This document shows positions 9,988-23,226 of a stretch of 64,000 bases of DNA, piece by piece. Within the stretch, counting starts at the first letter, position 1. Each line of letters opens with the position of its first letter. Source of the stretch: a virus. The notes under the pieces were generated by a model that ran no database searches, had not been told where the DNA came from, and saw only the letters and a list, made by a program, of their open reading frames with translations. The stretch lies in IMG/VR virus record IMGVR_UViG_3300028786_000007, positions 1-64,000 of that record; one strand, written 5' to 3'. A program made the position numbers and the translations under genes.

Positions 9988-10191
9988 ATGAGCGATTTCC
10001 TGGCCAGTCTTGAGCCTCTCCTGAGACGGCGCTGCGAGGCTGTATTGCAAATTGACACGGCCCTGGCGCACCTCCCGCGCCACCAGCTCATCGCTGTTCT
10101 CACCAGTTATATCGACCTTGATCAGCTTGAAGAAGCCCTACCAACCATCTGCGGAAGCGATAATGCAAAATCACCAGCGCCTGAGCATTGA
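9988..10191 (+). CDS. Hypothetical protein
   Basis: RBS GAGG, packed ORF. Confidence 0.55.
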   Translation: MSDFLASLEPLLRRRCEAVLQIDTALAHLPRHQLIAVLTSYIDLDQLEEALPTICGSDNAKSPAPEH

Positions 10192-11059
10192 AGAATTCGG
10201 CAAAATCCTGATCCAGAGCAATGACCTCGACCCGGTCTATTGCGCGCTCTACACCATGATGGAGGGCGACGTTCTCAGCCAGGAACACCTCTCGCGGTGG
10301 ATCCTCGCCTATAGCTGCCTCTACCATTGCGGCGTGGCTAGCTACCTTAGCGAGTTCGAAGGCGAGGCGTTCTTTAAGGCGCTGATGGTAGCGGCCTGGA
10401 ACGAGGAGCCCTCGCCGGTCGGTGAGCGGTGGCCGCGCGGGCATGAGCGCCGGCACTGGCGTGGGGCTCAGGCGGTGGACAGCTGCAAGGCGCTTTGGGA
10501 CCGCTACCACAGAGAGCCTGAGCACTTCCTGGATTACGTGATATGGCAATATGCGGCCGACGGTGAGCGTGGCCACCCCACTACCTTCGCTGATATCTCT
10601 GAGCGAGTCCGCACCCACCGCGGCTTCGGAGGGTGGATTGCCTTCAAGCTGGCGGACATGATTGACCGGCTACAACTGCGTCGGGTCGAGTTCAATTATG
10701 ATGATGTCACCATCTACACAGATCCTGTCAAAGCTGCGGAACGTCTTGTACGGCAACGCAATGGTTTTCCCGAAACAGCTTCAGTAAAACCGGAAGCCGT
10801 GAAAGCAGTTTTTGAAGCTTTAGAAGAGCATTTCTCCAATTACCCAGCTCCACCGGTGGGCGACCGGCCAATTGGACTTCAGGAAGTCGAATCAATATTG
10901 TGCAAGTGGAAGTCCCACATGAACGGGCACTATCCGCTCTACAATGACATCCGGGAGATCCGGGAAGGGCTGCTGCCCTGGGCGGAAGTCAGTGAGGTGG
11001 CCGGCTTCTTCCGCGCCGCGATGCCCAAGTTGCCCGCCGAGAAGAAGGTGGCCGCATGA
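10163..11059 (+). CDS. Amino acid:DNA transferase (aGPT-Pplase2 / AADT family) for thymidine hypermodification
   Basis: NDLDPVY, WPRGHERRHWRG, FGGWIAFKLADM and QEVESILCKWKSH..GHY motifs recalled from M6/YuA-type enzymes; cluster context. Confidence 0.8.
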   Translation: MQNHQRLSIEEFGKILIQSNDLDPVYCALYTMMEGDVLSQEHLSRWILAYSCLYHCGVASYLSEFEGEAFFKALMVAAWNEEPSPVGERWPRGHERRHWRGAQAVDSCKALWDRYHREPEHFLDYVIWQYAADGERGHPTTFADISERVRTHRGFGGWIAFKLADMIDRLQLRRVEFNYDDVTIYTDPVKAAERLVRQRNGFPETASVKPEAVKAVFEALEEHFSNYPAPPVGDRPIGLQEVESILCKWKSHMNGHYPLYNDIREIREGLLPWAEVSEVAGFFRAAMPKLPAEKKVAA

Positions 11060-11673
11060 AACGCCAGAAGATATGCGGCGTGTATCGAATACGCTGTTGC
11101 ACTTCAGGATATGCATATATCGGAAGTGCGCTGGATATTGAGCAACGCCTTAAGCACCATCGCAGAACTCTCCAGGAAAATATCTGTGTTAACAAAGTGC
11201 TTCAATTTGCCTGGAATGTGTTCGGGGAAGGTAATTTTGCCTTTGAAATTGTAGAAACTTGCGAAAAAGAGCAGCTCCTGGATCGGGAGAGCTTCCACGC
11301 GGAACAAACTGAATTTCTCTTCAATCTAGGCAAAGTGGTACGCCGCCCGAAAGGCATGACCCCTGAAGGTCGTCTCCGTTGTTCTGAGGCGGCGAAGCGA
11401 GCACATAAAGAAGGTCGCCTTGGCACACCAACGTGGCGTGCAGCGACATGGGAAGGGCTTCCAGAGCGTGGCCGTAAACTATCGGCTGACCGCAAACCAC
11501 TATCCAAAGAACAACGCCAAGCTGCATCTGAACGCATGATTGCCATGCAAGTTGAGGGCAAAGTACCCCCTCGAACCTGGAGTGATTCAGAGCGCCAGAG
11601 GGTCAGGGAACAAGCGGAAGCTCAACGCAAAGAAGGTCGGCTGGGAAGTCGTTCCCATCGAGGAAGCAAATGA
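11056..11673 (+). CDS. Free-standing GIY-YIG homing endonuclease
   Basis: CGVYRI..YAYIGSA..QR..H, LQFAWNVFG..NFAFEIVE..RE..FN; basic NUMOD-like C-terminus. Confidence 0.85.
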   Translation: MKRQKICGVYRIRCCTSGYAYIGSALDIEQRLKHHRRTLQENICVNKVLQFAWNVFGEGNFAFEIVETCEKEQLLDRESFHAEQTEFLFNLGKVVRRPKGMTPEGRLRCSEAAKRAHKEGRLGTPTWRAATWEGLPERGRKLSADRKPLSKEQRQAASERMIAMQVEGKVPPRTWSDSERQRVREQAEAQRKEGRLGSRSHRGSK

Positions 11674-12515
11674 CCAATTTTGATACCATCGTTGTGGGAG
11701 CCGGCATCTTTGGTACCACTATTGGATTGTGGTTGCGCCGCCAAGGTCAAAGCGTGTTGATACTGGACGCGGAGAAGCCTCTCTCGGGCTCAGCTCCGGC
11801 AGCTTGCATTGTAAGACCCCAGTGGTTGGGCAAGATGTCTAAGAAGGAAATGGCCCAAGCTTTCTCCGTATTGGACGAGCTTTACGGCCTCCATGAGCTA
11901 GAGGCTCGTATTCTAGTTGCAGGCTTCACCAAGAGCATTTCCGTCTATTGGGTTGCACCACGTGCCATTCTCAAAGCAGGGCGTTTTGAGCCGGCCGAAG
12001 TTGTGGAAGTCGGTGTTGGTGAATCTCCTTGGGTTCGGTGCAGCGATGGTCGCATTATCCATGCCAGAAGCGTGGTGGTGGCTGCTGGCGTGTGGAGCTC
12101 GAAGTTATGCACAATCAATAACTTAACAGCTCAGGCTGGTGTGGCATTTACGTGGAAAACCGAAGACCCTGAGGATGGTCGCCCACGCATCGCTCCGTGG
12201 GCTCCATACCGGCAATTGGTGGCCCTGAACCGGGCACCGTATGAAACATGGGCGGGCGATGGCACTGCGCTAAAGCAGAGCTCACTGACCCCGGAACGTA
12301 TTGCGGCTTCTCGTGAGCGTTGTGCTAAATTTGTGAACATGCCCCCTGAGGATGCTACCGAGATTGTTGGTTTACGTCCTTACATTCGTGGCTTGAAAGA
12401 TCCATGCCTGGTCGAAGAGGTAATGCCGAACATCTTCGTCGCTAGCGGAGGCAGCAAGAACGGCACGGCCGGGGCCGGCTGGGCCGCGTATAAGATTGCT
12501 GAAGCAACGAATTGA
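11670..12515 (+). CDS. FAD-dependent oxidoreductase (DAO/glycine-oxidase-like; candidate glycinyl-thymine lyase)
   Basis: IVVGAGIFG Rossmann motif, VVVAAGVWS, GLRP, GGSKNG; lies next to the AADT. Confidence 0.85.
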   Translation: MTNFDTIVVGAGIFGTTIGLWLRRQGQSVLILDAEKPLSGSAPAACIVRPQWLGKMSKKEMAQAFSVLDELYGLHELEARILVAGFTKSISVYWVAPRAILKAGRFEPAEVVEVGVGESPWVRCSDGRIIHARSVVVAAGVWSSKLCTINNLTAQAGVAFTWKTEDPEDGRPRIAPWAPYRQLVALNRAPYETWAGDGTALKQSSLTPERIAASRERCAKFVNMPPEDATEIVGLRPYIRGLKDPCLVEEVMPNIFVASGGSKNGTAGAGWAAYKIAEATN

Positions 12516-12525
12516 GGCTGAGGCG

Positions 12526-13494
12526 ATGGCGTTTTCCCACGAGGGCTGGACATACGGCGCGGAGCACGAGCTCGCCGACATCGACCGGCGCAAGCCGCTA
12601 CCGGCCGGCTATAAGTGGGACGACCGCGATGTCACGATCGTCAATAGCAACGGCATCGCCAATGACCCCAAGGGCCGCCTCTATGGTTATGGTGGTGAGA
12701 TCAACACGCCGGCCACCAATTCAATCTCTGGCCAGATGGGGTGCCTGCTGCAGATCCTGGAGTGGGACCTTAGTGCTCGTGTGAATTACCGCAGCAACCT
12801 ACATTTGCATATCCGGGTTCCAGGCCTCAAAGAAGATCTCCGCGCGCTGAAGCGCCTTGCACTCTACAACGCGCATTGGCTTCCGATTGTGCTTCCGATC
12901 ATTGAGCCCATTCCCTACCCGAATGGCGACGACTACGGCACGGAGCTCTCCTGGCAGGGTGCGCTGCGCCGCTATAAGCGCCGTAAGCGGTCCCACCAGA
13001 CGGTCTTGACCCCGCAGCGCACAGCGAAGATGATCGAGGCGCACACCGTGGAGGAGTTTTTCCGCGCGGAGGTGCCCGTGGACAGTAAGGGCAACCCGAT
13101 GTGGCATGCCCAGGCGCGCGCCGCAGTCAATATCCGCCAGCTGCGAGAAACTGAGACAATCGAGTTCCGCCACTTTTCGGGCACGCTGGACATCAACGAG
13201 CTCAGCCACTGCTTCGATTGGTGCGAGCACTACCTGCTGTGCGCGCTTTGCCCAACTTGGGGACTGCGGCCCTCCGCCTTAGACCCCTATCAGACCTTCA
13301 AGCCACACAAGCCGTTCCAGGGCGTGTTGGCCGGCTTCCCGGAGTTCCCGCCCTACGACCATGCCCTGGAAATCCGCTACCGGGCGACCTGCCATGACGG
13401 GTCGCTGGAGCAAGAGCAGATCGCTAGGAATATCAAAGCGATAGAAGAAAACAGTTTTGACGATGAAGCTTGGGAGAGATCACTAAAATGGTGA
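12526..13494 (+). CDS. Putative amidoligase (COOH-NH2 ligase, glutamine-synthetase/GCS fold)
   Basis: TYGAEHE, GGEINT, LHLHI, AVN and TIEFRHFSGTLD motifs; start may be 12496. Confidence 0.75.
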   Translation: MAFSHEGWTYGAEHELADIDRRKPLPAGYKWDDRDVTIVNSNGIANDPKGRLYGYGGEINTPATNSISGQMGCLLQILEWDLSARVNYRSNLHLHIRVPGLKEDLRALKRLALYNAHWLPIVLPIIEPIPYPNGDDYGTELSWQGALRRYKRRKRSHQTVLTPQRTAKMIEAHTVEEFFRAEVPVDSKGNPMWHAQARAAVNIRQLRETETIEFRHFSGTLDINELSHCFDWCEHYLLCALCPTWGLRPSALDPYQTFKPHKPFQGVLAGFPEFPPYDHALEIRYRATCHDGSLEQEQIARNIKAIEENSFDDEAWERSLKW

Positions 13495-13775
13495 ATAACG
13501 CAAGAATAGGCGAATTTCGAATGATGGCGGCTCAGGTCTTTTATGCCGAAGACGCCGATGGCTTTCTCCGCCGTTGGGAGCCCACTCCGGAGACGTTGCG
13601 CGGCTCCGAAATGGCGCGCGCGATTCGCGGCGGCACGGCTATCAATGACACGCCAACCCTGATCGAATTTCTGGTCGATCGGCTGGTCAACCTTCATGGC
13701 GAAAGCCTTGACGTGGATTATATCCGGGCGGCAAAGGAACGTGCGGCAATGTTGCGCGACTCGTTGCCAAAATGA
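13488..13775 (+). CDS. Hypothetical protein
   Basis: Packed ORF, ATGA overlap with the next gene. Confidence 0.6.
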   Translation: MVNNARIGEFRMMAAQVFYAEDADGFLRRWEPTPETLRGSEMARAIRGGTAINDTPTLIEFLVDRLVNLHGESLDVDYIRAAKERAAMLRDSLPK

Positions 13776-14116
13776 CCGTTTACGTCGACGACATGTACGC
13801 CATGCCGATGGGGCGCTACCGCGGCATGAAGATGTCGCACATGATCGCCGATACGGAAGCGGAGCTGCACGCCATGGCGGATCAGATTGGCGTGAAGCGA
13901 CGCTGGTTTCAGCAGGTTCCGAGCGGCAACCATTACGACATTGCCATGAGTAAGCGCAGTCGAGCAGTGGCGGCCGGCGCGGTGGAGATCACCATGCGGC
14001 AGTGCGCGGCGATTTGCGCGTGTCAGCGCCGCGGTGAGGCTTACTCCTCGCCGGAGGACGCTTGGGAGAAGCACCGCGCGCGGCTTAGCGCGATAATCAA
14101 TGCGCCGGAGCAATAA
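13772..14116 (+). CDS. DUF4031-family protein
   Basis: MTVYVDD..MSHMIADTEAELHAMADQIGVKRRWFQ..HYDI..R.RAVAAGAVEI. Confidence 0.85.
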   Translation: MTVYVDDMYAMPMGRYRGMKMSHMIADTEAELHAMADQIGVKRRWFQQVPSGNHYDIAMSKRSRAVAAGAVEITMRQCAAICACQRRGEAYSSPEDAWEKHRARLSAIINAPEQ

Positions 14117-14184
14117 TCCACATGCTGCGTTGGCTTAAGCGGCTACGTTGCGTTTTGTTCGAAGCATGAAAGAGGAATCGACGA

Positions 14185-14742
14185 ATGACAGTTCTGGTAC
14201 TTTGCCACGGAGCAATCTGCCGTTCACCTATGGCCGTTGCAGTGATGAAACGGGCAGGTCTTACGGATGTTCATTGCGCAGGCTTCAAGCCCGCGGACGA
14301 AAGGTCCAAACCTTCCCCGAAGAAGGTGCGCGACTGGGCGATGGAAAATGAGGGTCTGGACCTCTCATTGCATCGTTCCAAGTCTGTGACCGTGGACATG
14401 CTACGGCGGGCGGAGATTATCCTCTACATGGACAGCGGCCAGATGGGTCGGCTGGAAACGCTGTGGGAGGAAAACGGCCTCGCCGCTGAGCTTGGCCCGG
14501 TTTATGCGCGCGCCCGGCCGCTGGCCGCTTACCTGACCACCCCCCTGGGCCGCATCGGCGACCCGATGTTCCAGAAGCCGGAAACCCAGGAGTTTATGAC
14601 CATTATGGGTCAGCTCGTGGAAGCTTCCACGCGCTTCGCTCGCGAATGGCAGGAACTCAAGAAGGGCGACGCGCAAGTCGCCGGCCTGCAGGCGGCGGCC
14701 ACCGCCAGCACGGACGGTGCTCCTGAGGAGGCCGCGGCGTAA
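14185..14742 (+). CDS. Low-molecular-weight protein tyrosine phosphatase / ArsC-like phosphatase
   Basis: VLVLCHGAICRSPMA (CX5RS P-loop), HRSK, IGDP general-acid motif. Confidence 0.85.
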   Translation: MTVLVLCHGAICRSPMAVAVMKRAGLTDVHCAGFKPADERSKPSPKKVRDWAMENEGLDLSLHRSKSVTVDMLRRAEIILYMDSGQMGRLETLWEENGLAAELGPVYARARPLAAYLTTPLGRIGDPMFQKPETQEFMTIMGQLVEASTRFAREWQELKKGDAQVAGLQAAATASTDGAPEEAAA

Positions 14743-15347
14743 TGCCCCAATTGGTAAATATACGGGGCACTAGCGGCTCCGGTAAGTCCACAGCGGTCCG
14801 CTCCATTATGGAGCGGGCTGATAGCGTTGACCCCTTCCTGGCCGACCCGGCCGTGTTCGGCAAAAAGCGCAAGAACCCACTGTTCTATCTGTGTCAGTTC
14901 AAGGGTCATCCGGACGTGGCGGTGCTCGGCCACTATGGCGCAGATTGCGGCGGACTGGACACATTACCTTCTTATGCTTTCATCACAGAACTGATCCGGA
15001 CTCGCTACAGCGAAGGTCAACACGTGATCTTCGAAGGGCTATTGCTCAGCCATGACACCAAGCAGGTGCTCGGGCTGTGGGACTGGCTCGGTAAGAAGGA
15101 TTTCACCGTCCTGGAGCTTACCGAAACGGTGGAGACCTGCGTGCAGTCTGTCAGGGACCGGCGCGCGCGGAAGGGCCAACCTCCGGAGTTCAATACGAAC
15201 AACACCGTGCGTCGGCACGGCGAGGTTATACGGGCGTGTAGTAAGCTCGAGGCGGCCGGCGTACCGGTGCGGCGCATTAGCCGGGCGGAATGCGTTCCGA
15301 CCGTCCTGGAGCTGCTGGAGCTGCGTAAGGAGGCGGTGGCGGCGTAA
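14742..15347 (+). CDS. P-loop nucleotide kinase associated with hmdU modification clusters
   Basis: NIRGTSGSGKST Walker A; GGLDT; VIFEGLL; lid R..RR. Confidence 0.8.
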   Translation: MPQLVNIRGTSGSGKSTAVRSIMERADSVDPFLADPAVFGKKRKNPLFYLCQFKGHPDVAVLGHYGADCGGLDTLPSYAFITELIRTRYSEGQHVIFEGLLLSHDTKQVLGLWDWLGKKDFTVLELTETVETCVQSVRDRRARKGQPPEFNTNNTVRRHGEVIRACSKLEAAGVPVRRISRAECVPTVLELLELRKEAVAA

Positions 15348-15619
15348 TGGCGAAATATCGCAAGAAGGCGGTGGAAGTTGAGGCTTGGGGAACCAAGAGC
15401 GGCGAACGTGCACCGGATTGGCTTCAGCAGGCTGAAGTGGAAGGTCGTGCGAGCTACCACTTTGCTATTGGCGGTTCAGGCTTTTCCATGTCCATCAAAA
15501 CTCTTGAGGGGGTGATGACGGCGGATTTTGGCGACTTCATCATTCGCGGCGTGAAGGGCGAGATCTATCCTTGCAAGCCGGATATCTTTGAAGCGACCTA
15601 TGACAAAGTCGACGAATAA
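15347..15619 (+). CDS. Conserved phage protein (YRKK..TLEG..GDFIIRGVKGEIYPCKPDIF family)
   Basis: Widespread phage motif recognised; function not established. Confidence 0.8.
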   Translation: MAKYRKKAVEVEAWGTKSGERAPDWLQQAEVEGRASYHFAIGGSGFSMSIKTLEGVMTADFGDFIIRGVKGEIYPCKPDIFEATYDKVDE

Positions 15620-15872
15620 GCTAGCCCTCGCGCTTCTTCTCCTCGGCGCTGGGCCCAGTCATGCCCAGCGCCTCGACGGGCCGGAGATCGGCGTGGATTG
15701 CCAATATGGTCGCGGCGTACTGAAACTGTGCCAAGCCGGGTGCCGTGCCGAGTCTGATTCAGCGCGAACATGGCGACGGGTAAATAACGAAGAGCGCGTG
15801 CAGCGGTTGGCACACTGCCTAGATGAATGTTGGGGTATCCGTAAAGCCTTGGAAGAATGCCCCAAGAGGTGA
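15600..15872 (+). CDS. Small secreted Cys-rich protein
   Basis: Signal peptide LALALLLLGAGPSHA; six Cys. Confidence 0.55.
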   Translation: MTKSTNKLALALLLLGAGPSHAQRLDGPEIGVDCQYGRGVLKLCQAGCRAESDSARTWRRVNNEERVQRLAHCLDECWGIRKALEECPKR

Positions 15873-16789
15873 GCCCCGTGGCCCGCAATAAGCACGCTAT
15901 TGTAACGGAAGCGCACCTGCAGCGCTTCTTCGATTTCTCCCGTGAGCGTTACCACATTATGCTGCGGCGGCGGTTAGGGCAACCGGCCCCCTGGACCACC
16001 GACCCGGTGCTGGCCATGTGGCGGTTCTGCAACGTGTTCCGCGAGGACGACCGCACCACGACTTGGTTCCGGGAAAATATCCGCAACGAGCTGAGCATGG
16101 AACCGCGCGTGGTCATGGCCACGATCGCTTTCCGTGCCTTCAATCGCGTTGAGACCGGCGAGATTCTCAAGCCCTTCCTGCTCAACGAAGACTATAATTT
16201 CCCGGAATGGCGGCGACTGCTTACTGAACGCGCAGAAGCTAATTTCCCTGTGGTTACAGGGGCTTACATGATAAAAACAGCGCCGAAACTAAATAAAATA
16301 GACGGCGTGCTGTATCAGCTCAGTGAGGCCAAAATGCGCGAAGCCTCCATCATGGACTGGATCCGTAATAACGATTGGGGCTTCTGCACTCAGGAAAGCC
16401 TGTGGGAACTGCTCTGCACTTTCCCCTATATTGGTCAATTTACCGCCAATGAAGTGGTGGTCGACCTTACCCACACTCACATTCTCCGCGCCGCGCGAGA
16501 CCTGGATACCTGGACCAACCCCGGCCCAGGCTGCTCCCTGGGCATTGGCATGCTACTCCACGGCGATGGGCAGGTCTACCGCCGCCATGCTCAAGCAGAT
16601 CGTCGGGTAATGACTGGCATTATGACTGAGTTCCTGTATGCTTCCCGGGAGGAGCGCTATTGGCCGCAGGCTTGGCCCCGTTGGACGCTCCATACGGTGG
16701 AATGGGGTTTTTGTGAGCTGAGTAAGTACCTTCGCGGCCTAGCCGGACAAAAGCTCAAAAGGAAGTACCGTGCCTCGGAACTTGCGTAG
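15869..16789 (+). CDS. aGPT-Pplase1 family protein (5-hmdU DNA kinase family)
   Basis: ERYHI..RR..GQPAPWTTDPVL..WRFCNVFREDDRTT, TGAYMI, IGQFTANEVVVD, GPG, CELSKY; start could be 15857. Confidence 0.85.
   Translation: MSPVARNKHAIVTEAHLQRFFDFSRERYHIMLRRRLGQPAPWTTDPVLAMWRFCNVFREDDRTTTWFRENIRNELSMEPRVVMATIAFRAFNRVETGEILKPFLLNEDYNFPEWRRLLTERAEANFPVVTGAYMIKTAPKLNKIDGVLYQLSEAKMREASIMDWIRNNDWGFCTQESLWELLCTFPYIGQFTANEVVVDLTHTHILRAARDLDTWTNPGPGCSLGIGMLLHGDGQVYRRHAQADRRVMTGIMTEFLYASREERYWPQAWPRWTLHTVEWGFCELSKYLRGLAGQKLKRKYRASELA
16766..16774 (+). repeat. 9-bp direct repeat TACCGTGCC (left flank of the endonuclease gene)
   Basis: Identical to 17484-17492; contains the GTG start codon. Confidence 0.7.
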
Positions 16790-17513
16790 TGGGAAGGTCT
16801 ATTCCTACCTGCTCGTGCGCCCAAACGGCATTCCCTTCTATGCGGGCGTGGGCCGTTGTAGCCGATACAAGGCTAAGAAAGCGAATAAGTGGGCTGAGCG
16901 TATCCGCGCGAAGATTGAGCGTGAGGGTGGCCGAGTTCTCTATATAGTTTTTGACCAATCTTCTTGGGATGAAGCGTGTACTCATGAGAAGGAACTCATT
17001 GCAAAATATGGCCGCCAAGATCTAGGAACTGGCGTTCTGGTGAATGCTACGGATGGTGGGGAGGGTGTGCCCGGCCGTATCATGACCAAGGATCAGTTGG
17101 CACATTTGGGCAGTCAACAACGCGGTAAAAAGTGGGCACCCGATGACCCGCGTCGAGAGCTAATTTCTCGTCAATTCAAGGGACGTAAGCCCAATCACTC
17201 TCCTGAGCTAAAGCAACAACTTTCAGAAAGAATGAAGAAGTTCAATGAGGGCAACGCTGAGCGCAATAGGGCAAGAAAAGGCATCTCGCTAAGTGAGGAA
17301 CGACGGGCGCAGATTAAGGCCACAGCTGCAGCCCAACCCCCAATGAGCGAGGAACGCAAAGAAGCGTTTCGCCAGATGACCATCGCTCGTAATAGGGCAA
17401 ATAAAGGAAAGCCTCAAAGTGAGGAGCGTAAGGCTCAGTCACGAGAAACCCTTGCCCGAGCTCTTAAAATTCGATGGGAACGCTACCGTGCCAACAACCC
17501 TACCCATTCGTAA
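16770..17513 (+). CDS. GIY-YIG-like homing endonuclease with NUMOD3-type repeats
   Basis: YSYLLVRPNGIPFYAGVG..R..E.ELIAKYGR.DLGTG.LVNATDGGEG; repeated SEERK/SEERR motifs. Confidence 0.85.
   Translation: MPRNLRSGKVYSYLLVRPNGIPFYAGVGRCSRYKAKKANKWAERIRAKIEREGGRVLYIVFDQSSWDEACTHEKELIAKYGRQDLGTGVLVNATDGGEGVPGRIMTKDQLAHLGSQQRGKKWAPDDPRRELISRQFKGRKPNHSPELKQQLSERMKKFNEGNAERNRARKGISLSEERRAQIKATAAAQPPMSEERKEAFRQMTIARNRANKGKPQSEERKAQSRETLARALKIRWERYRANNPTHS
17484..17492 (+). repeat. 9-bp direct repeat TACCGTGCC (right flank)
   Basis: Identical to 16766-16774; contains the likely GTG start of the hydroxymethylase. Confidence 0.7.
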
Positions 17514-18570
17514 CGTACACGCAGCTCTGCCTGCCTTTCTACTCACCCTCCTCGAAACTAGCATCTCTGAAGAAAGCCGCAACGGCCCCGTTTTCGTGTA
17601 CCCATACCCGCTGACGACTCTCTATGAGCGTCCTTGGGAACGAGTGATATTTTGGGAAGAGCGGGACGCTAACCCATTTTTTCACTTCCAGGAATCACTT
17701 TGGATGCTAGCCGGGAGGAATGATGTTGATTTTCCAGCGCATTACGCGAAGCAGCTACGCACTTATAGTGACGACGGTAAGACTTTGCATGGAGCTTATG
17801 GCCATAGGTGGCGCCATCATTTTGCTGACAAAGACCAGCTCTCCTGGGCTATTAGCCGGCTTAGGGACAATCCGTCCGACCGACGCACCGTAATCTCAAT
17901 GTGGGATCCAATCATTGATGCTGATATGGCGGACAAGGGTGGGAAAGATACTCCCTGCAATACGCAGATCTATCTTAACGTGCGTGACGGCCATTTGTGT
18001 ATGCAAGTGAATTGTCGATCGAACGATGCGTTGCTCGGCGCGTTCGGAGCCAACGCAGTGCACATGGCCTTTTTGCATGAATATCTTGCGGCCCATATCG
18101 GAGTTCCGATGGGCTGGTATGCTCAAAACAGCTTCAACATCCATGTCTACGAAGGTTTCTATAAGACGGTCATGAATGACCGCAAGGCTAGGGTCGAACA
18201 GCAGAGCCTGCGGTTCGCTATGACGCAGCCTGGAGAGCATCGCTGGAACCCGTACAGCGATTTACCCGGCCTGCAGCTCCACTCTCTCGTCAATTCCCCC
18301 CAAGCTACTTGGGATTCGGAGTTAGCCATTTTCCTGGCGGGCGGTTCCAGTAAGGCTGATGGCCTAGACGACCCATTTTTCACCAAAGTCGCTGTTCCAA
18401 TTAGGGACGCCCACGCAGCATACCGCAAGAGAGATCATGACCTCGCCAACGAAGTTATCTCCAAATGTGCAGCCGCCGACTGGCGCAGAGGATGCACCGA
18501 CTGGCTCACCCGACGTGCAGAGCAACGCAATACTCCGAAGCATGCTGAGCCGGATAGCGCTCACCCGTAA
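17488..18570 (+). CDS. Thymidylate-synthase-fold dUMP hydroxymethyltransferase
   Basis: SRNG, NPFFH..E.LW.LAGRND, YSDDG..HGAYG.RWR, PCN catalytic Cys, RSND..G...N (Asn indicates dUMP specificity), HVY. Confidence 0.85.
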   Translation: MPTTLPIRNVHAALPAFLLTLLETSISEESRNGPVFVYPYPLTTLYERPWERVIFWEERDANPFFHFQESLWMLAGRNDVDFPAHYAKQLRTYSDDGKTLHGAYGHRWRHHFADKDQLSWAISRLRDNPSDRRTVISMWDPIIDADMADKGGKDTPCNTQIYLNVRDGHLCMQVNCRSNDALLGAFGANAVHMAFLHEYLAAHIGVPMGWYAQNSFNIHVYEGFYKTVMNDRKARVEQQSLRFAMTQPGEHRWNPYSDLPGLQLHSLVNSPQATWDSELAIFLAGGSSKADGLDDPFFTKVAVPIRDAHAAYRKRDHDLANEVISKCAAADWRRGCTDWLTRRAEQRNTPKHAEPDSAHP

Positions 18571-19084
18571 TGGTGGCCACGTCAAGCGCTGGCACACCAA
18601 GCAGATTATCGGCGAACAGACGGTCGGACACCACTCCTTTGGGGTGGTGTCGCTACTTCTGATCCTGCACCCCAACCCGAGCCTCGATTTGCTGAGGGCA
18701 GCGATGTGGCACGATATGGCGGAGCAGGTCACCGGTGACGTGCCCAGCCCTATCCTGCGTTCCGAGCATGAATTCGGCACCTGCCACGACAAGATCGAGG
18801 CGGAGTTCATGCGCAATAAGCTCTTCGTGCGCATGGACCACCTCCCCTTCAACGACCACAGTTGGCTCTGGGCTTGCGATAAGCTGGAGTGTTTATTGTT
18901 CTGCCGGGAGCAAGTTGCGCTTGGTAATAAGGGTTTTGAAAATATCTGCGGATTACTTACCGAGTGGTTTCTGAAAACTGACGCAGTACCTGGGCCAGTA
19001 ATGGCCATTGTCTATAAGCTTAGCCAAAGTTATTGCGGCTATTCTTTGGAGGATGTGCTTGAAGTTATGGGGACATCAACTTGA
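18542..19084 (+). CDS. HD-domain 5'-deoxynucleotidase (YfbR-like)
   Basis: VKRWH, QTVGHHS, HDMAE..TGDVPSP, CDKLE. Confidence 0.85.
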   Translation: MLSRIALTRNGGHVKRWHTKQIIGEQTVGHHSFGVVSLLLILHPNPSLDLLRAAMWHDMAEQVTGDVPSPILRSEHEFGTCHDKIEAEFMRNKLFVRMDHLPFNDHSWLWACDKLECLLFCREQVALGNKGFENICGLLTEWFLKTDAVPGPVMAIVYKLSQSYCGYSLEDVLEVMGTST

Positions 19085-19500
19085 CTGACTTTCACGAAAA
19101 ACATCCCCAGGTCGGCGGAAATCATTACGCCAAAGGCGGAGACCTTCAGCATTGGGACCTGATTGAGCGCGGAAGCATCGGCTACCTGGAAGGCTGCGCC
19201 ACGAAGTATATTGCACGGTGGCGCGACAAGGGGGGGCTGCAAGACCTCAAGAAGGCCAAGCATTACGTAGAGAAGTTGATTGACATGCGGTCCAAGGCCG
19301 GCCGCATGGCGCGCGGTGAGGCTCTGCCAGAGGATCTGGAGCGCTTTTTTGCTACTTATGGGATGGGTGATATGGAGCGCGAGGTTATTCGGAAGCTGTG
19401 CTCCAATTGGAGCCGGGTGGATCTGTTCTGGGTGCTTGGTGCACTCGAAGTGATTATTGACAAGGAAGAAAATGGCCCTCAGCAAAGCCCAGCAACTTAA
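19081..19500 (+). CDS. DUF3310 (T7 gp1.7-like nucleotide kinase) domain protein
   Basis: QVGGNHY..G...KYIARWRDKGGLQDLKKA.HY. Confidence 0.85.
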   Translation: MTDFHEKHPQVGGNHYAKGGDLQHWDLIERGSIGYLEGCATKYIARWRDKGGLQDLKKAKHYVEKLIDMRSKAGRMARGEALPEDLERFFATYGMGDMEREVIRKLCSNWSRVDLFWVLGALEVIIDKEENGPQQSPAT

Positions 19501-21463
19501 GAAGGGCTCCACCCTTCAATTGAGCCTTTTCGCGCCGGAGAGTGTTTGGTCACCTCCGGCGCTCAGCATGCTCCCTAGCTGGAAAGGGGCGAAGCGTGTA
19601 GCGGTCGACGTAGAGACGAAGGATCCGGACCTGCGGGAGCTCGGGCCGGGCGTGCGCCGGCCGAGCACCTCCCATATCGCCGGTTACAGTTTCGCGATCG
19701 ACGATGGCCCGGCCTATTACATGCCGGTGGCGCACCTCGGCGGCGATAACGTCGACAACCCGGATCAGGCCTGGCAATACCTCGCCGACCAAGCCAAGGA
19801 CTTTGACGGGGAGATTGTCGGTCAAAACCTCGGCTATGACCTGGATTGGCTGGCGGAGGCGCGGCGCGGTAAGCCGGCGATCGTGTTCCGGCGGGCGCGG
19901 GCGTTCCGCGATACGATGGTCGCCGCGGCGCTGATCTATGAGCTGCACATGAGCTATAGCCTCGGTGCGATTGCTGAGCGCTACGGTATGCCCGGCAAAA
20001 ATGAGGAGCTTCTTCGGCAGGCCGCCGCGGAGTTTAACGTAGACCCCAAGGGCGGTCTCTGGCGGCTCCCAGCGCGTTACGTGGGGCCTTACGGCGAGGG
20101 CGATGCCCACTTGCCCCTGCGCATCCTCGAGCGCCAGGAGAAGGAGATCGCTGAGCAGGATTTGGGCCGGATTTGGGATATTGAATCGGCGTTGCTGCCG
20201 GTGCTGGTCAAGATGCGCCGCCGCGGCGTGCGGATCGACTTCGACCGGCTGGCCCGTATCGAGGACTGGACCCTCCAGGAGGAGCGCAAAGCCCTGGACA
20301 TCGTCCGGTTTGAAACCGGCTACATGATTGAGGTGGGCGACGTTTGGAAGCCTACCGCGCTGGCTCCGGCCCTGGAAGCGGTCGGCATCAGTGTGGGGCG
20401 CACGGCCAAGACCGCTTCGCCGCAGATCGATAAGGCGCTGCTCTCCAGTTCGGACCACCCGGTCTTGAACGCTATCGCCTGGGCGCGCAAGGTCAATAAG
20501 CTCCGCACCACCTTTGCCCAGTCGGTGCGCACCCATGCCGTCAACGGCCGTATCCACACCACCTTGAACCAGCTCTTCGGCGAACGGGAGGACGGCGGGC
20601 TGCGCGGCGCGCGGTTCGGGCGCATGAGCTGTGAGAACCCGAATTTGCAGCAGCAACCTTCCCGGGATGAGTTCGCCCAAGAGTGGCGCGCCATCTACAT
20701 CCCGGAAGAGGGTATGCAGTGGGGCTGCATGGACTTTTCGCAGCAGGAGCCGCGGTGGTGCGCGCACTTCGCCAATGCGATGAAGCTGGAAGGCGCGGCG
20801 GCGATGGTCGCGCGCTTCAACGAAGACCTCAAGACCGACGTTTATGACCTCGTCGCCTCCATTACCGGCCTGAAGCGCAAGGAAGCCAAGATCGTGTATC
20901 TTGGCATTATGTATGGTGAGGGCGGCTACAAGCTCTGCATGGACCTCGGTTACGAGACCGCGGTCAAGGTGGTGCTGAAGGGCAAGTGGTCCGCGGAGAA
21001 CTCCCAGGAGGGCTATGACGCGCTCCGCGGCGGCGGCCGGAAAGTACAGGCGGCTGGCCCGGAAGGACAAGCGGTTATCGATCAGTTCGACAACAACGCG
21101 CCATTTGTGCGGAAATTGAGCAAAGCCTGCTCGACTGTTGCCGAGCAACGTGGCTACATCAAGACTATTCTCGGCCGGCGTTGCCGCTTTCCGAAGGACG
21201 ACCACGGCAATTACGACTGGAGTTACAAGGCACTCAATAGGCTCATCCAAGGTAGCTCAGGAGACCAAGTTAAAGCTGCAATGGTAGAGGTGGATAAGGC
21301 CGGTCACCATTTACAACTCCAGGTACATGATGAGTTGGATGGCTCAATCAAAGACCGTGCTGAGGGTGAGGCCATGGCTGAGATCATGCAGAACGTCGTC
21401 CAGATGAGCGTGCCGTTCCGAGTTGATGTAGAGGTTGGCCCTAACTGGGGTGAGATTAAATGA
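19472..21463 (+). CDS. polA: Family A DNA polymerase with 3'-5' exonuclease
   Basis: DVET, N.GYD (exonuclease); GRMSCENPNLQQ, DFSQQEPR, RKEAK...LG.MYG, LNRLIQGS, QVHDE. Confidence 0.95.
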   Translation: MALSKAQQLKKGSTLQLSLFAPESVWSPPALSMLPSWKGAKRVAVDVETKDPDLRELGPGVRRPSTSHIAGYSFAIDDGPAYYMPVAHLGGDNVDNPDQAWQYLADQAKDFDGEIVGQNLGYDLDWLAEARRGKPAIVFRRARAFRDTMVAAALIYELHMSYSLGAIAERYGMPGKNEELLRQAAAEFNVDPKGGLWRLPARYVGPYGEGDAHLPLRILERQEKEIAEQDLGRIWDIESALLPVLVKMRRRGVRIDFDRLARIEDWTLQEERKALDIVRFETGYMIEVGDVWKPTALAPALEAVGISVGRTAKTASPQIDKALLSSSDHPVLNAIAWARKVNKLRTTFAQSVRTHAVNGRIHTTLNQLFGEREDGGLRGARFGRMSCENPNLQQQPSRDEFAQEWRAIYIPEEGMQWGCMDFSQQEPRWCAHFANAMKLEGAAAMVARFNEDLKTDVYDLVASITGLKRKEAKIVYLGIMYGEGGYKLCMDLGYETAVKVVLKGKWSAENSQEGYDALRGGGRKVQAAGPEGQAVIDQFDNNAPFVRKLSKACSTVAEQRGYIKTILGRRCRFPKDDHGNYDWSYKALNRLIQGSSGDQVKAAMVEVDKAGHHLQLQVHDELDGSIKDRAEGEAMAEIMQNVVQMSVPFRVDVEVGPNWGEIK

Positions 21464-22020
21464 ACTTTCTTGACATCAAGCCCCTACCCCCAACGCCCGA
21501 AGAGATGGCCCGCCAACGGAAGTGGGACTTCCGCATGCTGTCTATGGCGCGGCTGGTTTCTATGTGGTCACAAGATCCCTCAACGCGCGTGGGAGCGGTG
21601 ATTACCCGGCGCGACCACACGGTACTCTCATTGGGCTATAACGGTTTTCCGCGCGGGTGTAGCGACGCTCCGGAGCTTTACGAGGACCGGGAACGGAAGT
21701 ATGCGCGCGTCGTTCACGCTGAGCTCAATGCCATACTCGCCGCGGCGGAACGGCCGATAGGGTGCACGCTTTACGTCTGGCCGCCCGCGCTACGGCCGGG
21801 CACATGCGCAAATTGCGCTTCAGCGATTATCCAGTCTGGCATTTCGCGCGTCGTAAGCGTGGAGTCAAATGCCATCGGGTTTAACGAACGGTGGGAGAAG
21901 TCTTACCGGGAGGCGGCTCAGATGTACGCAGAAGCGCTTATCCCCTTTGACAGTTACCCATTAGCGGAGTTCGAAGAGTGGATGAAGGCAATGTCCGCAC
22001 CACCGTTCTCAGCGCCCTGA
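21460..22020 (+). CDS. dCMP deaminase
   Basis: SQDPSTRVGAVI, GYNGFPRG, HAELNAI, CANC. Confidence 0.93.
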   Translation: MNFLDIKPLPPTPEEMARQRKWDFRMLSMARLVSMWSQDPSTRVGAVITRRDHTVLSLGYNGFPRGCSDAPELYEDRERKYARVVHAELNAILAAAERPIGCTLYVWPPALRPGTCANCASAIIQSGISRVVSVESNAIGFNERWEKSYREAAQMYAEALIPFDSYPLAEFEEWMKAMSAPPFSAP

Positions 22021-22481
22021 GGCCGTTGCACGCCATTTATGTTGAGAACGGCGCGAAGGCTGGGACCGGTGACGTTAATTACATAGAAGGTTGGCTCGAA
22101 TTAAAATGGTTGCACAATTGGCCGAAACGCCCAAAGACGCCGATAAAACTGCCCGAATTCACGCCCCAACAGCGGCTCTTCCTGATCGAGCGATGTCGCA
22201 TGAACGGTCAGGCACGCGTGCTGCTAAGGGTGGGCAGGGAGTGGATCCTGCTGCCGGGGATGTGGTCGGCCTTCAGGCTCGGAAAGACCTCGACGCGCGC
22301 CGACATTCTGGCAGCAGCGGAAAAGCATTGGTTGGCAAATTTAAGCAGATCCGAGCTCGTCAGTTACCTTCGCGACCCACCTCCGGTGAACTCCGATTGG
22401 TCGAGCTTTCTAAAGGAGAGCGGCTACACATTTCCCGGCTTAGAAAGGGCGTCGATCAACACGTTGCTGCAGCTGCCTTAG
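21978..22481 (+). CDS. PD-(D/E)xK nuclease (VRR-NUC / Holliday-junction resolvase-like)
   Basis: E..V, VEN...GTGD, WLELK, PQQRLF. Confidence 0.7.
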   Translation: MDEGNVRTTVLSALRPLHAIYVENGAKAGTGDVNYIEGWLELKWLHNWPKRPKTPIKLPEFTPQQRLFLIERCRMNGQARVLLRVGREWILLPGMWSAFRLGKTSTRADILAAAEKHWLANLSRSELVSYLRDPPPVNSDWSSFLKESGYTFPGLERASINTLLQLP

Positions 22482-22699
22482 GCGTCACTCGTTCCCGTTA
22501 CCAGGATATGGAGAAAGAGGACGGCGAGTTCCGCAAGATGCGTCTTACGGTGAACGAGTGGTGCCGCGTCATGCGGTGGCGCGCACGTAAGTCGCAACGA
22601 GTTGTCGCCGCGGAGATGGGAATGACCCGTAACTGGATCAATCGCATTGAATGCGGCTTGGAAAAAGCTGATTCACTTCTTTGGTATTGGGAACATTGA
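22397..22699 (+). CDS. Tandem XRE-type HTH protein (start uncertain)
   Basis: Two HTH-like units: RLRKGVDQHVAAAALGVTRSRYQDME and RARKSQRVVAAEMGMTRNWINRIECG. Confidence 0.65.
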   Translation: MVELSKGERLHISRLRKGVDQHVAAAALGVTRSRYQDMEKEDGEFRKMRLTVNEWCRVMRWRARKSQRVVAAEMGMTRNWINRIECGLEKADSLLWYWEH

Positions 22700-23226
22700 T
22701 GACTGAGACGCCGGAAACAATATTGGATTGGTCACTGAAGACGTTTGGATTGCATTCAGTACTTTCTGTGGCGACGCGGGCGAGCAAGGAAGTCAATGAA
22801 CTTGTCTGCGCCGTCCTTAACGACGCACCGCTTGCAGCAATCCACGAGGAGATTGCTGACTGCGCCATTATGATGTGGCAAGTTGCGGGACTCAAGAATC
22901 TTGATCATCGGCCGGCTCTTCGTCAAATGACTAATCCGGAAGAGGTCAATAAGGGCATTGCAGCGCTGATGATTCAACGGCGCTTTACGTCTGTGTTGGA
23001 TGAGTTGGTCAAGGCTCAAAATCCCAGCAAATTTCCTGAATTGGCGCAGGCGCACTCCATGGGTATTTTGCGCGATTCGCTGATTTGCCTGGAGTTCCTC
23101 GCTTGGGCCTATGGCATAGACTTACAGGAGCATGTTGATGGTAAAATGGTAATCAACCGCAGCCGTAGTTGGGAAAAACTGCAAAATGGTGGTTACCAAC
23201 ATGTTGCCGCTGCTGTAGTTGCCTAA
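22699..23226 (+). CDS. MazG-like / DUF550-type (d)NTP pyrophosphohydrolase
   Basis: W...TFG, KEVNEL, EEIADCAI, KMVINRSRSW. Confidence 0.7.
   Translation: MTETPETILDWSLKTFGLHSVLSVATRASKEVNELVCAVLNDAPLAAIHEEIADCAIMMWQVAGLKNLDHRPALRQMTNPEEVNKGIAALMIQRRFTSVLDELVKAQNPSKFPELAQAHSMGILRDSLICLEFLAWAYGIDLQEHVDGKMVINRSRSWEKLQNGGYQHVAAAVVA

Follow-up and report, generated by a model that had tools for sequence, protein, structure and literature searches.

The analysed window comprises the first 64,000 nucleotides of a viral contig of about 100.5 kb that appears complete (IMG/VR record IMGVR_UViG_3300028786_000007). Between positions 10163 and 23226 it contains a single block of co-oriented genes, all located on the plus strand, with the following features:

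10163..11059, +, AADT (aGPT-Pplase2), predicted glycine:5-PmdU transferase; PF18724 at 69.3 bits (cut-off 26.2)
11056..11673, +, GIY-YIG homing endonuclease between the AADT and FAD genes; PF01541 at 33 bits, PHROG homing-endonuclease families
11670..12515, +, FAD-dependent N-alpha-glycinylthymidine oxidase/lyase (PaMx11 gp47 homologue); PF01266 (DAO) at 68.5 bits, 38% identical to full-length gp47
12526..13494, +, GS/GCL-fold carboxylate-amine ligase (Amidoligase_2-like) in the PaMx11 acetyltransferase slot; assigned from its homologue family and AF2 fold
13470..13775, +, putatively coding 101-residue frame of unassigned function; without a match in Pfam or PHROG, related loci show no conserved counterpart
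13772..14116, +, DUF4031 protein; PF13223 at 89.8 bits
14185..14742, +, LMW-PTP-type phosphatase; PF01451 at 48 bits, CX5RS P-loop and DP acid loop
14742..15347, +, P-loop 5-hmdU DNA kinase (5-HMUDK; PaMx11 gp49 / M6 gp54 type); AAA_33 at 26.7 bits, 40% identical to gp49
15347..15619, +, small, questionably MazG-like protein; weak match to nucleotide pyrophosphohydrolase family phrog_4159 (2.8e-5)
15588..15872, +, 94-residue frame; no family match, copies of 55% identity at the same position in the loci L005 and L006
15857..16789, +, 5-hmdU DNA kinase helical-domain protein (aGPT-Pplase1; PaMx11 gp50 homologue); PF18723 at 146.6 bits (cut-off 25), 42% identical to gp50
16770..17513, +, second homing endonuclease, between the HMUDK-helical and TS-like genes; phrog_314 homing endonuclease at 3.8e-10
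17497..18570, +, TS-fold enzyme, predicted dUMP 5-hydroxymethylase; PF00303 at 75 bits, 43% identical to PaMx11 gp51
18437..19084, +, YfbR-like HD-domain 5'-deoxynucleotidase; PF12917 at 41 bits, 38% identical to PaMx11 gp52
19081..19500, +, DUF3310 protein (PaMx11 gp53 homologue); PF11753 at 36 bits, PHROG 'nucleotide kinase' families (phrog_236 at 1.4e-17)
19457..21463, +, family A DNA polymerase (PolA) with 3'-5' exonuclease domain; PF00476 at 168 bits, PF01612, 55% identical to PaMx11 gp55
21460..22020, +, dCMP deaminase, supplying dUMP; PF00383 at 63 bits, 54% identical to PaMx11 gp56
21978..22699, +, two small genes, homologues of PaMx11 gp57 (tblastn, 39% identity) and the HTH protein gp58 (35%); HTH_31/HTH_3 domains
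22681..23226, +, MazG-like nucleotide pyrophosphohydrolase; solved MazZ (7ody) at E 1.4e-5, PHROG pyrophosphatase families

Matches for AADT, HMUDK_hel, TS, HD, DUF3310, PolA, deaminase, DAO and LMWPc exceed the curated family cut-offs, and for the two aGPT-Pplase genes they do so by a wide margin. The genes that a previous sequence-only reading had listed as one co-oriented block are all found at or near the positions it gave, the helical-domain gene starting at 15857 instead of 15869. Its interpretation had been made conditional on the genes at 10163 and 15869 belonging to the aGPT-Pplase families, and the PF18724 and PF18723 matches place them there. That reading had not mentioned the FAD oxidoreductase (11670-12515), the amidoligase (12526-13494), the LMW phosphatase (14185-14742) or the two homing-endonuclease genes (11056-11673 and 16770-17513). 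Homologues of the GIY-YIG endonuclease are located at the same AADT/FAD junction in two related loci (L008 and L018), and the second endonuclease is not found at the matching position in PaMx11, Ab18 or phage Simon. Among related cassettes, the DUF4031 gene is confined to those of the nearest relatives, L005 and L006.

The podovirus-type label previously given to the genome is supported by its head and tail genes, as capsid, portal and a tail-nozzle homologue match Paracoccus phage vB_PmaP_KLEP18-1 and Bcep22/Stx-type podoviruses. The label describes gene homology, not morphology. Podoviruses of the HTVC023P type carrying pairs of TS and aGPT-Pplase1 genes had already been reported (PMC9599517).

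The gene content suggests how a modified nucleotide pool would be established prior to replication. From what is known of the respective families, dCMP deaminase would provide dUMP, which would be hydroxymethylated by the TS-fold enzyme. The best solved relative of the latter is the CMP hydroxymethylase MilA (92 bits), with true thymidylate synthases scoring at most 50 bits, which places it nearer to the hydroxymethylases than to the true thymidylate synthases. At the base-specifying position, the Asp of the cytosine-specific MilA aligns with an Asn, in agreement with the dUMP-type residue described before. The DUF3310 protein is likely the nucleotide kinase for hmdUMP that would initiate its conversion to the triphosphate, with later steps presumably carried out by host kinases. 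Competing T and U nucleotides would be removed by the HD-domain protein, which is predicted to deplete dTMP and dUMP, and by MazG-like hydrolases. Of the latter, the protein encoded at 22681-23226 resembles MazZ, whereas the protein encoded at 15347-15619 shows only weak PHROG matches to this class, its strong matches being to PHROGs without assigned function (phrog_419, 1e-29) and Pfam and PDB searches returning none. The phage PolA would then synthesize DNA in which 5-hmdU replaces T.

The subsequent steps are expected to proceed on DNA. Phosphorylation of 5-hmdU to 5-PmdU would be catalysed by a kinase that is encoded in two parts, the P-loop protein, whose Walker A motif reads GTSGSGKST, and its helical PF18723 partner. 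AADT would exchange the phosphate for glycine to yield N-alpha-glycinylthymidine, from which the FAD enzyme would oxidatively remove glyoxylate, with 5-aminomethyl-dU as the predicted second product. The three reactions were demonstrated for the PaMx11 homologues, where the amine is subsequently acetylated (Lee et al. 2021, PMC8989533), and support for them in this phage comes from synteny together with the conservation of catalytic and substrate-pocket residues. AADT, whose start codon at 10163 is supported by the alignment with PaMx11 gp46, is 48% identical to this protein and 51% to YuA gp10. Conservation extends to the catalytic Cys, the metal site and the pocket, covering C247, W146, K150, D24, E243, E92, Y47, Y51, D262 and E265 of gp46 (for residue roles and structures see PMC11472151). 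The glycine pocket of YuA is matched at each of its six positions (D24, E96, K159, K248, Y257 and D262), and two of these residues, K248 and Y257, have been demonstrated to govern whether glycine or a diamine is preferred (PMC13458397). In the FAD enzyme, eight of the nine residues defined by the gp47 structure are retained (W51, Y180, Q182, K202, R210, R242, Y244 and K268), among them the carboxylate-binding R242. With catalytic and glycine-pocket residues conserved in both proteins, the route from 5-PmdU via N-alpha-glycinylthymidine to 5-aminomethyl-dU appears well supported, and a pathway retaining a glycine transferase and FAD lyase of the PaMx11 type should thus reach this amine. The proposal of a 5-hmdU-based hypermodification pathway is in this way supported by synteny with the biochemically reconstituted PaMx11 system and by the conserved active sites of two solved enzymes. 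That the virion would instead contain canonical T, with the TS-fold enzyme acting as an ordinary thymidylate synthase and a cluster that is unexpressed or decayed, we regard as very improbable: the block has been invaded by two homing endonucleases, but their genes lie between pathway genes and not within them, every reading frame is uninterrupted and catalytic residues are conserved, about 20 independent contigs have kept the cassette, and the TS-fold enzyme groups with hydroxymethylases.

The block differs from PaMx11 in the step following amine formation. The amidoligase occupies the exact position of gp48, the PaMx11 acetyltransferase. Although at 15 bits the protein itself scores below the PF12224 cut-off of 22, it has 791 homologues, of which those at 50-70% identity carry this domain, and its AF2 model (pLDDT 95) finds as top structural matches exclusively YbdK, GCL or GS (Z of 9-10). 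Invariant residues (E13, E15, E58, H93, H95, E213 and R215) are Glu, His and Arg of the metal- and ATP-binding type. Since neither literature nor PDB searches returned a characterised member of this family, we infer its substrate and the direction of its reaction from the gene neighbourhood only. Searches for gp48 homologues in the contig, phage Simon and 80 amidoligase loci found none, and the acetyltransferase-bearing isolates have no amidoligase. Both proteins are thus mutually exclusive in a single slot. The phosphatase, whose residues C7, R13, S14, D126 and P127 are invariant among 30 homologues, directly follows the amidoligase in 75 of the 80 viral loci. AADT is found in 66 of these loci and the kinase in 68, and the contexts of the pair include three different T-pathway layouts and a deazaguanine cluster. 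In the amidoligase clade of the window (SH-aLRT 100 in a quick-search tree), the genes immediately upstream invariably generate a primary amine. They encode the FAD lyase in 20 entries and the M6-type PLP decarboxylase and radical-SAM isomerase in two metagenomic loci (L022 and L024). In two complete genomes that contain QueC and lack AADT (L007 and L023), the amidoligase follows QueF, whose product, the aminomethyl-deazaguanine preQ1, carries an amine and no carboxylate. As the FAD and PLP/radical-SAM routes both destroy the glycine carboxylate, the amine is the only handle they have in common. A larger clade (50 of 81 entries) is linked to TET/JBP, to a glutamine amidotransferase (GATase) and to an AADT with a different donor pocket, and its chemistry might not end in an amine.

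Taken together, we consider it fairly probable that the block encodes a functional thymidine hypermodification pathway that is based on 5-hydroxymethyl-dU, belongs to the PaMx11/M6 lineage and ends in an amidoligase-made N-acyl-5-aminomethyl-dU. In its final step, the amidoligase would use ATP to join a free carboxylic acid to the amine of 5-aminomethyl-dU, and the phosphatase would remove a phosphate, which could come from the acyl group, an intermediate or residual 5-PmdU. With acetylation replaced by an ATP-dependent amide ligase and a small phosphatase, the final base is probably one not yet described. The expectation that it differs from the M6 and PaMx11 bases thus gains a foundation beyond the mere absence of genes. 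To the metavirome clusters of Lee et al. 2021, this analysis adds the pairing of amidoligase and phosphatase in 75 of 80 loci, the finding that amidoligase and acetyltransferase exclude each other, and the occurrences next to QueF.

Two other roles of the amidoligase have to be weighed. It could act on the DNA-borne carboxylate of N-alpha-glycinylthymidine, adding ammonia or an amine to yield a glycinamide-type base, with the FAD lyase in a parallel or later branch. GS-fold enzymes activate carboxylates, the larger clade adjoins a glutamine amidotransferase, the classic ammonia donor in such amidations, and CmoY sets an example by using ATP to form an amide at a carboxylate carried on DNA, that of 5-carboxymethylcytosine (PMC12783734). 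We nevertheless find this role unlikely. The window contains no GATase, and amidation would block the FAD lyase, which retains R242 as the proposed binder of the free glycine carboxylate. In L022 and L024, the accompanying PLP decarboxylase and radical-SAM isomerase likewise require the carboxylate before removing it, the QueF product offers none, and both lysines that bind the glycine carboxylate are missing from the GATase-linked AADTs. A similarly low probability is assigned to a mature base that is 5-aminomethyl-dU itself, possibly mixed with N-alpha-glycinylthymidine and T, where amidoligase and phosphatase would process a pool metabolite or a host or phage protein. The gene set up to 5-NmdU is complete with conserved active sites, the amidoligase is tied to DNA only indirectly, by gene context, and phage amidoligases were reportedly proposed by Iyer et al. 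to ligate peptides or metabolites. Yet the pair is embedded among DNA-modifying genes in 66-68 of the 80 loci across all these contexts, and at one slot it is mutually exclusive with the acetyltransferase.

The closest characterised system is the 5-AcNmdU pathway of the Pseudomonas siphophage PaMx11 (gp46 AADT, gp47 FAD lyase, gp48 acetyltransferase, gp49 5-HMUDK, gp50, gp51 TS-like; PMC8989533), whose gp46-gp58 region is syntenic with eleven genes of the block at 35-55% identity and shares enzymes and gene order from AADT through dCMP deaminase as well as catalytic and glycine- or carboxylate-binding residues (PMC11472151). It differs in the acetyltransferase, replaced here by amidoligase and LMW phosphatase, in lacking the homing endonucleases, DUF4031 gene and small frames inserted here, and in its 60-kb siphovirus genome. 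The 5-NedU pathway of the Pseudomonas phages M6/YuA (AADT, PLP decarboxylase, radical-SAM isomerase, 5-HMUDK) has in common the glycine-type AADT, the kinase, the TS-like enzyme and the replication module. As previously noted for the cluster, PLP and radical-SAM genes are absent, and a search of the entire 100.5-kb contig detected neither these nor GNAT or GATase genes. Metavirome clusters described by Lee et al. 2021 (PMC8989533; Figure 2, Discussion) include 'amidoligase and glutaminotransferase' Pfam matches, where the amidoligase is given no function and the main text makes no mention of a phosphatase, and our contig is an IMG/VR record of the same kind, combining 5-HMUDK, AADT, flavin oxidoreductase and amidoligase. 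The same cassette of AADT, FAD enzyme, amidoligase, LMW phosphatase, kinase, HMUDK helical protein and TS was found in a single record of a 50,697-record phage collection, phage Simon from raw sewage (GenBank PQ683277, UNVERIFIED, unannotated), on which literature searches returned nothing. Its PaMx11-like genome of 60.9 kb lacks the homing endonucleases, and its proteins are 30-62% identical to those of the window (most 35-54%). In HTVC023P-type pelagiphage podoviruses, M6/PaMx11-like TS and aGPT-Pplase1 genes similarly neighbour PolA, but the report names no AADT, and a text search for 'aGPT' was empty (PMC9599517), whereas the window contains the full post-replicative pathway. Finally, CmoY of Synechococcus phage S-B43, so far the only ATP-dependent amide ligase shown to act on a DNA base, likewise forms its amide bond late, on an already modified base in DNA (PMC12783734). 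This asparagine-synthetase-like, AMP-forming enzyme attaches free glycine to cytosine through a carboxylate carried on the DNA, not through an amine, whereas the amidoligase of the window, with its GS/GCL fold, would acylate an amine that a uracil derivative in the DNA carries, using a free acid.

The cluster between positions 10163 and 23226 encodes a predicted pathway of thymidine hypermodification whose early steps are known and whose final step is uncharacterised. It resides in the window, the initial 64 kb of a 100,523-bp IMG/VR virus contig, and all of its genes are found on the + strand.

Genes of the cluster. Bit scores refer to Pfam matches above curated cut-offs.
10163-11059, +, AADT (PF18724, formerly aGPT-Pplase2), 69.3 bits
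11056-11673, +, GIY-YIG homing endonuclease, Pfam match above cut-off
11670-12515, +, FAD oxidoreductase (PF01266), about 68 bits
12526-13494, +, predicted amidoligase of 322 aa, in the slot occupied by gp48 in PaMx11
13772-14116, +, DUF4031, Pfam match above cut-off
14185-14742, +, LMW phosphatase (PF01451), 48 bits
14742-15347, +, P-loop 5-hmdU DNA kinase, Walker A motif, 40% identity to gp49
15347-15619, +, MazG-like, weakly
15857-16789, +, 5-hmdU DNA kinase helical domain (PF18723, formerly aGPT-Pplase1), 146.6 bits
16770-17513, +, second homing endonuclease
17497-18570, +, thymidylate-synthase fold (PF00303), 75 bits, 43% identity to gp51
18437-19084, +, HD / YfbR-like, Pfam match above cut-off
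19081-19500, +, DUF3310, Pfam match above cut-off, PHROG nucleotide-kinase families also matched
19457-21463, +, PolA, Pfam match above cut-off
21460-22020, +, dCMP deaminase, Pfam match above cut-off
22681-23226, +, MazG-like, match to the solved enzyme MazZ

The sequence-only reading had described a co-oriented block of many of these enzymes as a 5-hmdU-based pathway, and the block is confirmed by matches to Pfam and PHROG families, to MazZ and to a Walker A motif, which include the proposed assignment of the genes at 10163 and 15857 to the two former aGPT-Pplase families (69.3 and 146.6 bits). The two homing endonucleases (11056-11673 and 16770-17513) are free-standing and located between pathway genes. 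In two related viral loci (L008 and L018), GIY-YIG homologues separate the AADT gene from the FAD-lyase gene, and others are found just after the AADT gene in a third locus (L043) and before the FAD gene in a fourth (L068), which suggests a recurrent insertion site. A class I ribonucleotide reductase large subunit (phrog_84, 1861-3627) is encoded upstream of the block, and a DUF2303 protein (161 bits, 24125-24964) just downstream of it, ahead of the capsid region.

None of 50,697 phage records matched the 13-kb block at the nucleotide level in a megablast search, and relationships were therefore investigated at the level of proteins. The closest isolates for the AADT and the HMUDK helical protein are Mesyanzhinovviridae siphoviruses of Pseudomonas and Bordetella (PaMx11, Ab18, YuA, M6-like), and 11 genes of the window follow the order of PaMx11 gp46, 47, 49, 50, 51, 52, 53, 55, 56, 57 and 58 with 35-55% identity. 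In PaMx11, gp46-gp49 have been reconstituted as glycine:DNA transferase, flavin-dependent lyase, acetyltransferase and 5-hmdU DNA kinase, which together generate 5-acetylaminomethyl-dU (Lee et al. 2021, PMC8989533). [quoted passage not shown] In the AADT, 10 of the 12 gp46 residues are identical, with T244 replaced by Ser and K261 by Asn. Those retained comprise C247 as the nucleophile, E243 as a ligand of the metal, W146, K150 and D24, which contact the glycine, and the residues of the phosphate pocket. A structure of the YuA Pplase2 has defined six donor-pocket residues, of which K248 and Y257 switch the preference between glycine and a diamine (PMC13458397), and all six residues of the glycine-type pocket shared by YuA and PaMx11 are identical in the window protein. 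The FAD enzyme, which aligns with gp47 over its full length at 38% identity, contains eight of nine structure-defined residues, including the base-cage residues W51, Y180, Q182 and K268 and R242, which was proposed to hold the glycine carboxylate (PMC11472151). Finally, the thymidylate-synthase-fold enzyme scores 92 bits with the CMP hydroxymethylase MilA vs at most 50 bits with thymidylate synthases, and the Asn previously noted at its base-specifying position indeed aligns with the Asp of the cytosine-specific MilA. The predicted route from dUMP via hmdUMP, 5-hmdU DNA, phosphorylated 5-hmdU (5-PmdU) and N-alpha-glycinylthymidine (N-alpha-GlyT) to 5-aminomethyl-dU (5-NmdU) is well supported by these sequence features.

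The subsequent step is where the cluster departs from PaMx11. A tblastn search of the complete contig with gp48 gave no match, even with E values of up to 1 allowed, and the absence of PLP, radical-SAM and GNAT genes from the cluster, already apparent from the sequence, extends to the entire contig, where PF00291, PF04055, PF00583 and also PF13522 find no match. The gp48 slot is instead occupied by the amidoligase, for which no Pfam family reaches its threshold (PF12224 scores 15 bits, with a cut-off of 22). Many of its 791 database homologues, including those at 50-70% identity, are assigned to PF12224 ('putative amidoligase'), and an alignment of 39 homologues contains invariant Glu-x-Glu, Glu, His-x-His and Glu-Phe-Arg-His motifs and several Arg, with E13, E15, E58, H93, H95, E213 and R215 among the invariant residues. 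A search of PDB sequences with the alignment profile gave only chance-level matches (E >= 0.06) and the fold was thus taken from structure prediction. The AlphaFold model (pLDDT 95) matches only YbdK, gamma-glutamylcysteine ligase (GCL) and glutamine synthetase (GS), with Foldseek probabilities of up to 0.99, and these proteins account for all of the top 50 structural matches (VIA Z 8.7-10.2, 176-247 residues aligned). By its predicted fold, the protein is hence an ATP-dependent carboxylate-amine ligase. A strongly basic helix (G-A-L-R-R-Y-K-R-R-K-R-S-H, residues 144-158, at about 12955-13000) is near-invariant across the family and could serve as a DNA-binding element. For the DNA-acting enzymes, isoelectric points were uninformative, since even the AADT, which is known to bind DNA, is acidic.

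Two genes beyond the amidoligase, the cluster encodes a phosphatase of the LMW-PTP type, whose CX5RS loop (C7, R13, S14) and DP acid loop (D126, P127) are invariant in 30 homologues. As M6 and PaMx11 both lack a phosphatase, the enzyme is coupled to the amidoligase and not to the kinase. A substrate connected with the reaction of the ligase is thus more probable than plain 5-PmdU, and candidates are an acyl donor or an intermediate that carries a phosphate. A complex prediction of both proteins (score 0.00) was uninformative either way.

The association of the two genes is illustrated in related viral loci. A search with the single amidoligase sequence found none, and an alignment-based scan of IMG/VR detected 86 relatives. 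The 80 best of these were retained and typed by tblastn with window proteins and with Pfam-typed proteins from two of the loci (L024 and L028). The phosphatase is located directly downstream of the amidoligase in 75 of these 80 loci, and three of the other five loci are truncated too near the gene. An AADT is present in 66 and a P-loop kinase in 68 of the 80, and gp48 was found in none. Concerning tailoring enzymes, 18 loci contain a FAD lyase as in the window, with one more that also contains TET/JBP, two an M6-like PLP enzyme with radical SAM, 39 a TET/JBP dioxygenase with GATase and nine, mostly truncated, only GATase. The sole isolate record with a FAD-type cassette is phage Simon (PQ683277). 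A quick maximum-likelihood tree separates the amidoligases into two clades (SH-aLRT 100 each), one of which comprises the window protein and all FAD-type, PLP/radical-SAM-type and QueF-type members, the other those from TET/JBP-GATase loci. The latter represent a second, larger cassette type found at L028:6934-12597 and in about 48 similar loci, with TET/JBP dioxygenase, GATase_6, amidoligase, LMW phosphatase, a gene without assignment, AADT and P-loop kinase3.

Two complete genomes with direct terminal repeats (109,475 and 111,480 bp) harbour the pair in loci that are devoid of thymidine genes (L007:8234-10361 and L023:7898-11766). In both, amidoligase and phosphatase directly follow a QueF-like nitrile reductase (preQ0 reductase) and precede a QueE-like radical-SAM gene, and both genomes contain QueC. 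QueF makes preQ1, which is 7-aminomethyl-7-deazaguanine. An AADT was not found in either genome in a PF18724 search, which, as the one with PF12851, was run without a positive control, and a PF01702 (TGT) search of both genomes for DpdA, which found none, carries little weight as phage DpdAs are divergent. The arrangement suggests that these phages contain an N-acylated preQ1 derivative in their DNA that has not yet been described.

In the amidoligase clade of the window, the genes immediately upstream always lead to a predicted product with a primary amine (5-NmdU, 5-NedU or preQ1), which a tether of one or two carbons places in the major groove, and in both thymidine routes, by FAD or by PLP/radical-SAM enzymes, the glycine carboxylate is destroyed on the way. 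The simplest common substrate of the amidoligase is thus an amine. The enzyme would use ATP to activate a free carboxylic acid and then acylate the DNA-borne amine, in a reaction that would be chemically parallel to the acetylation of PaMx11 that it replaces. CmoY (PMC12783734) is a real precedent for the reverse direction, where a DNA-borne carboxylate would be ligated to a free amine, and the GATase-linked clade might support this direction. However, the AADTs of this clade, with a donor pocket of D-L-G-S-Y-Q vs D-E-K-K-Y-D in the glycine type, are devoid of the two lysines by which the carboxylate of glycine is bound. The GATase partner of this distant clade was for this difference set aside as proof of carboxylate amidation. 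Without these lysines, the GATase-linked AADTs probably use another donor and, judged by their pocket residues, would probably install something other than glycine; in the L028-type cassettes, ammonia from the GATase could be this donor. Returning to acylation of an amine, we tentatively propose that the pair might constitute a portable two-gene module for the N-acylation of short major-groove aminoalkyl groups on any base, with 5-aminomethyl-dU as substrate in the window, 5-aminoethyl-dU in M6-like loci and preQ1 in the QueF phages. The TET/JBP clusters may provide a further source of its substrate, if GATase and the variant AADT generate 5-aminomethyl-dU directly from ammonia. If true, a portable module would represent an enzymatic class new to DNA hypermodification, in which an amide bond to a DNA-borne amine is formed in an ATP-dependent reaction with a phosphorylated step, and predict at least three undescribed DNA bases.

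The genome hosting the cluster appears essentially complete at ~100.5 kb, since a related contig of 100,568 bp (G001) is a circular permutation that bridges the contig ends (window 1 / contig 100523) at G001:C1:92011-97501. For the same reason, its classification as fragment (CheckV 76%) was rejected. Several other amidoligase-bearing contigs measure 100.5-100.9 kb. With homologues of gp41 and gp42 at 96.5-99.4 kb of the contig and its ends bridged, the PaMx11-like replication/modification module spans the contig junction. Among isolates, phages of ~40 kb give the best matches to the major capsid protein (26772-27848) and to the portal (contig 65746-68115). Paracoccus phage vB_PmaP_KLEP18-1 is one of these phages, and Bcep22-like, Ralstonia, Klebsiella and Stx podoviruses come next. 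The identity to KLEP18-1 is 44% for the capsid, 39% for the portal and 28% (E 4e-44) for the ORF at 30003-31481, a homologue of its 'nozzle' protein. At the level of these genes, homology thus supports the podovirus-type genome of the sequence-only reading. The head module is split, which is unusual, with the capsid gene and virion block (26-51 kb) located ~35 kb from the portal (phrog_156) and its upstream ORF (contig 62785-68115, crossing the window end). A 753-aa virion ORF (35079-37340) has no match among phage isolates, and it is followed in the virion block by a 3050-aa ORF (37341-46493), whose position we take to be comparable to that of the giant virion protein of Bcep22-like podoviruses. 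A siphovirus-type replication/modification module has apparently been acquired by a large genome whose structural genes are of the podovirus type. Taken on its own, the virion type is of modest novelty, as podoviruses with TS and aGPT-Pplase1 pairs have been reported (PMC9599517).

Collectively, the well-supported route to 5-aminomethyl-dU and its differing last step offer a testable entry to a new DNA base and a new DNA-tailoring enzyme pair. Restriction enzymes and other nucleases are kept from phage DNA by thymidine hypermodifications, which also hinder sequencing and cloning. To our knowledge, few end products and tailoring classes have been described, the latter comprising decarboxylase, radical-SAM isomerase, flavin lyase and acetyltransferase. 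Since the pair, which recurs in at least 80 viral contigs, is linked to both thymidine and 7-deazaguanine pathways, one solved case would probably explain many. Flavin oxidoreductases and 'amidoligase and glutaminotransferase' genes were already noted, with function unassigned, in metavirome contigs encoding 5-HMUDK and AADT (Lee et al. 2021, PMC8989533), in a study that is silent on the phosphatase in its main text, and in the 2023-2026 literature on thymidine, deazaguanine and T-dioxygenase modification we found no function for the amidoligase or phosphatase genes. Our analysis adds that the amidoligase is paired with the phosphatase, that it is mutually exclusive with the acetyltransferase and that it is linked to QueF. 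With respect to known systems, the cluster contains the TS-family enzyme, the P-loop kinase with its helical-domain partner and the AADT with catalytic Cys and metal site that are typical of 5-hmdU-derived post-replicative thymidine hypermodification. It differs from the M6 pathway to 5-NedU by its missing PLP decarboxylase and radical-SAM isomerase and from the PaMx11 pathway to 5-AcNmdU by its missing gp48-type GNAT acetyltransferase, whereas it shares with the latter a predicted glycine-specific AADT and a gp47-type FAD-dependent glycinylthymidine lyase.
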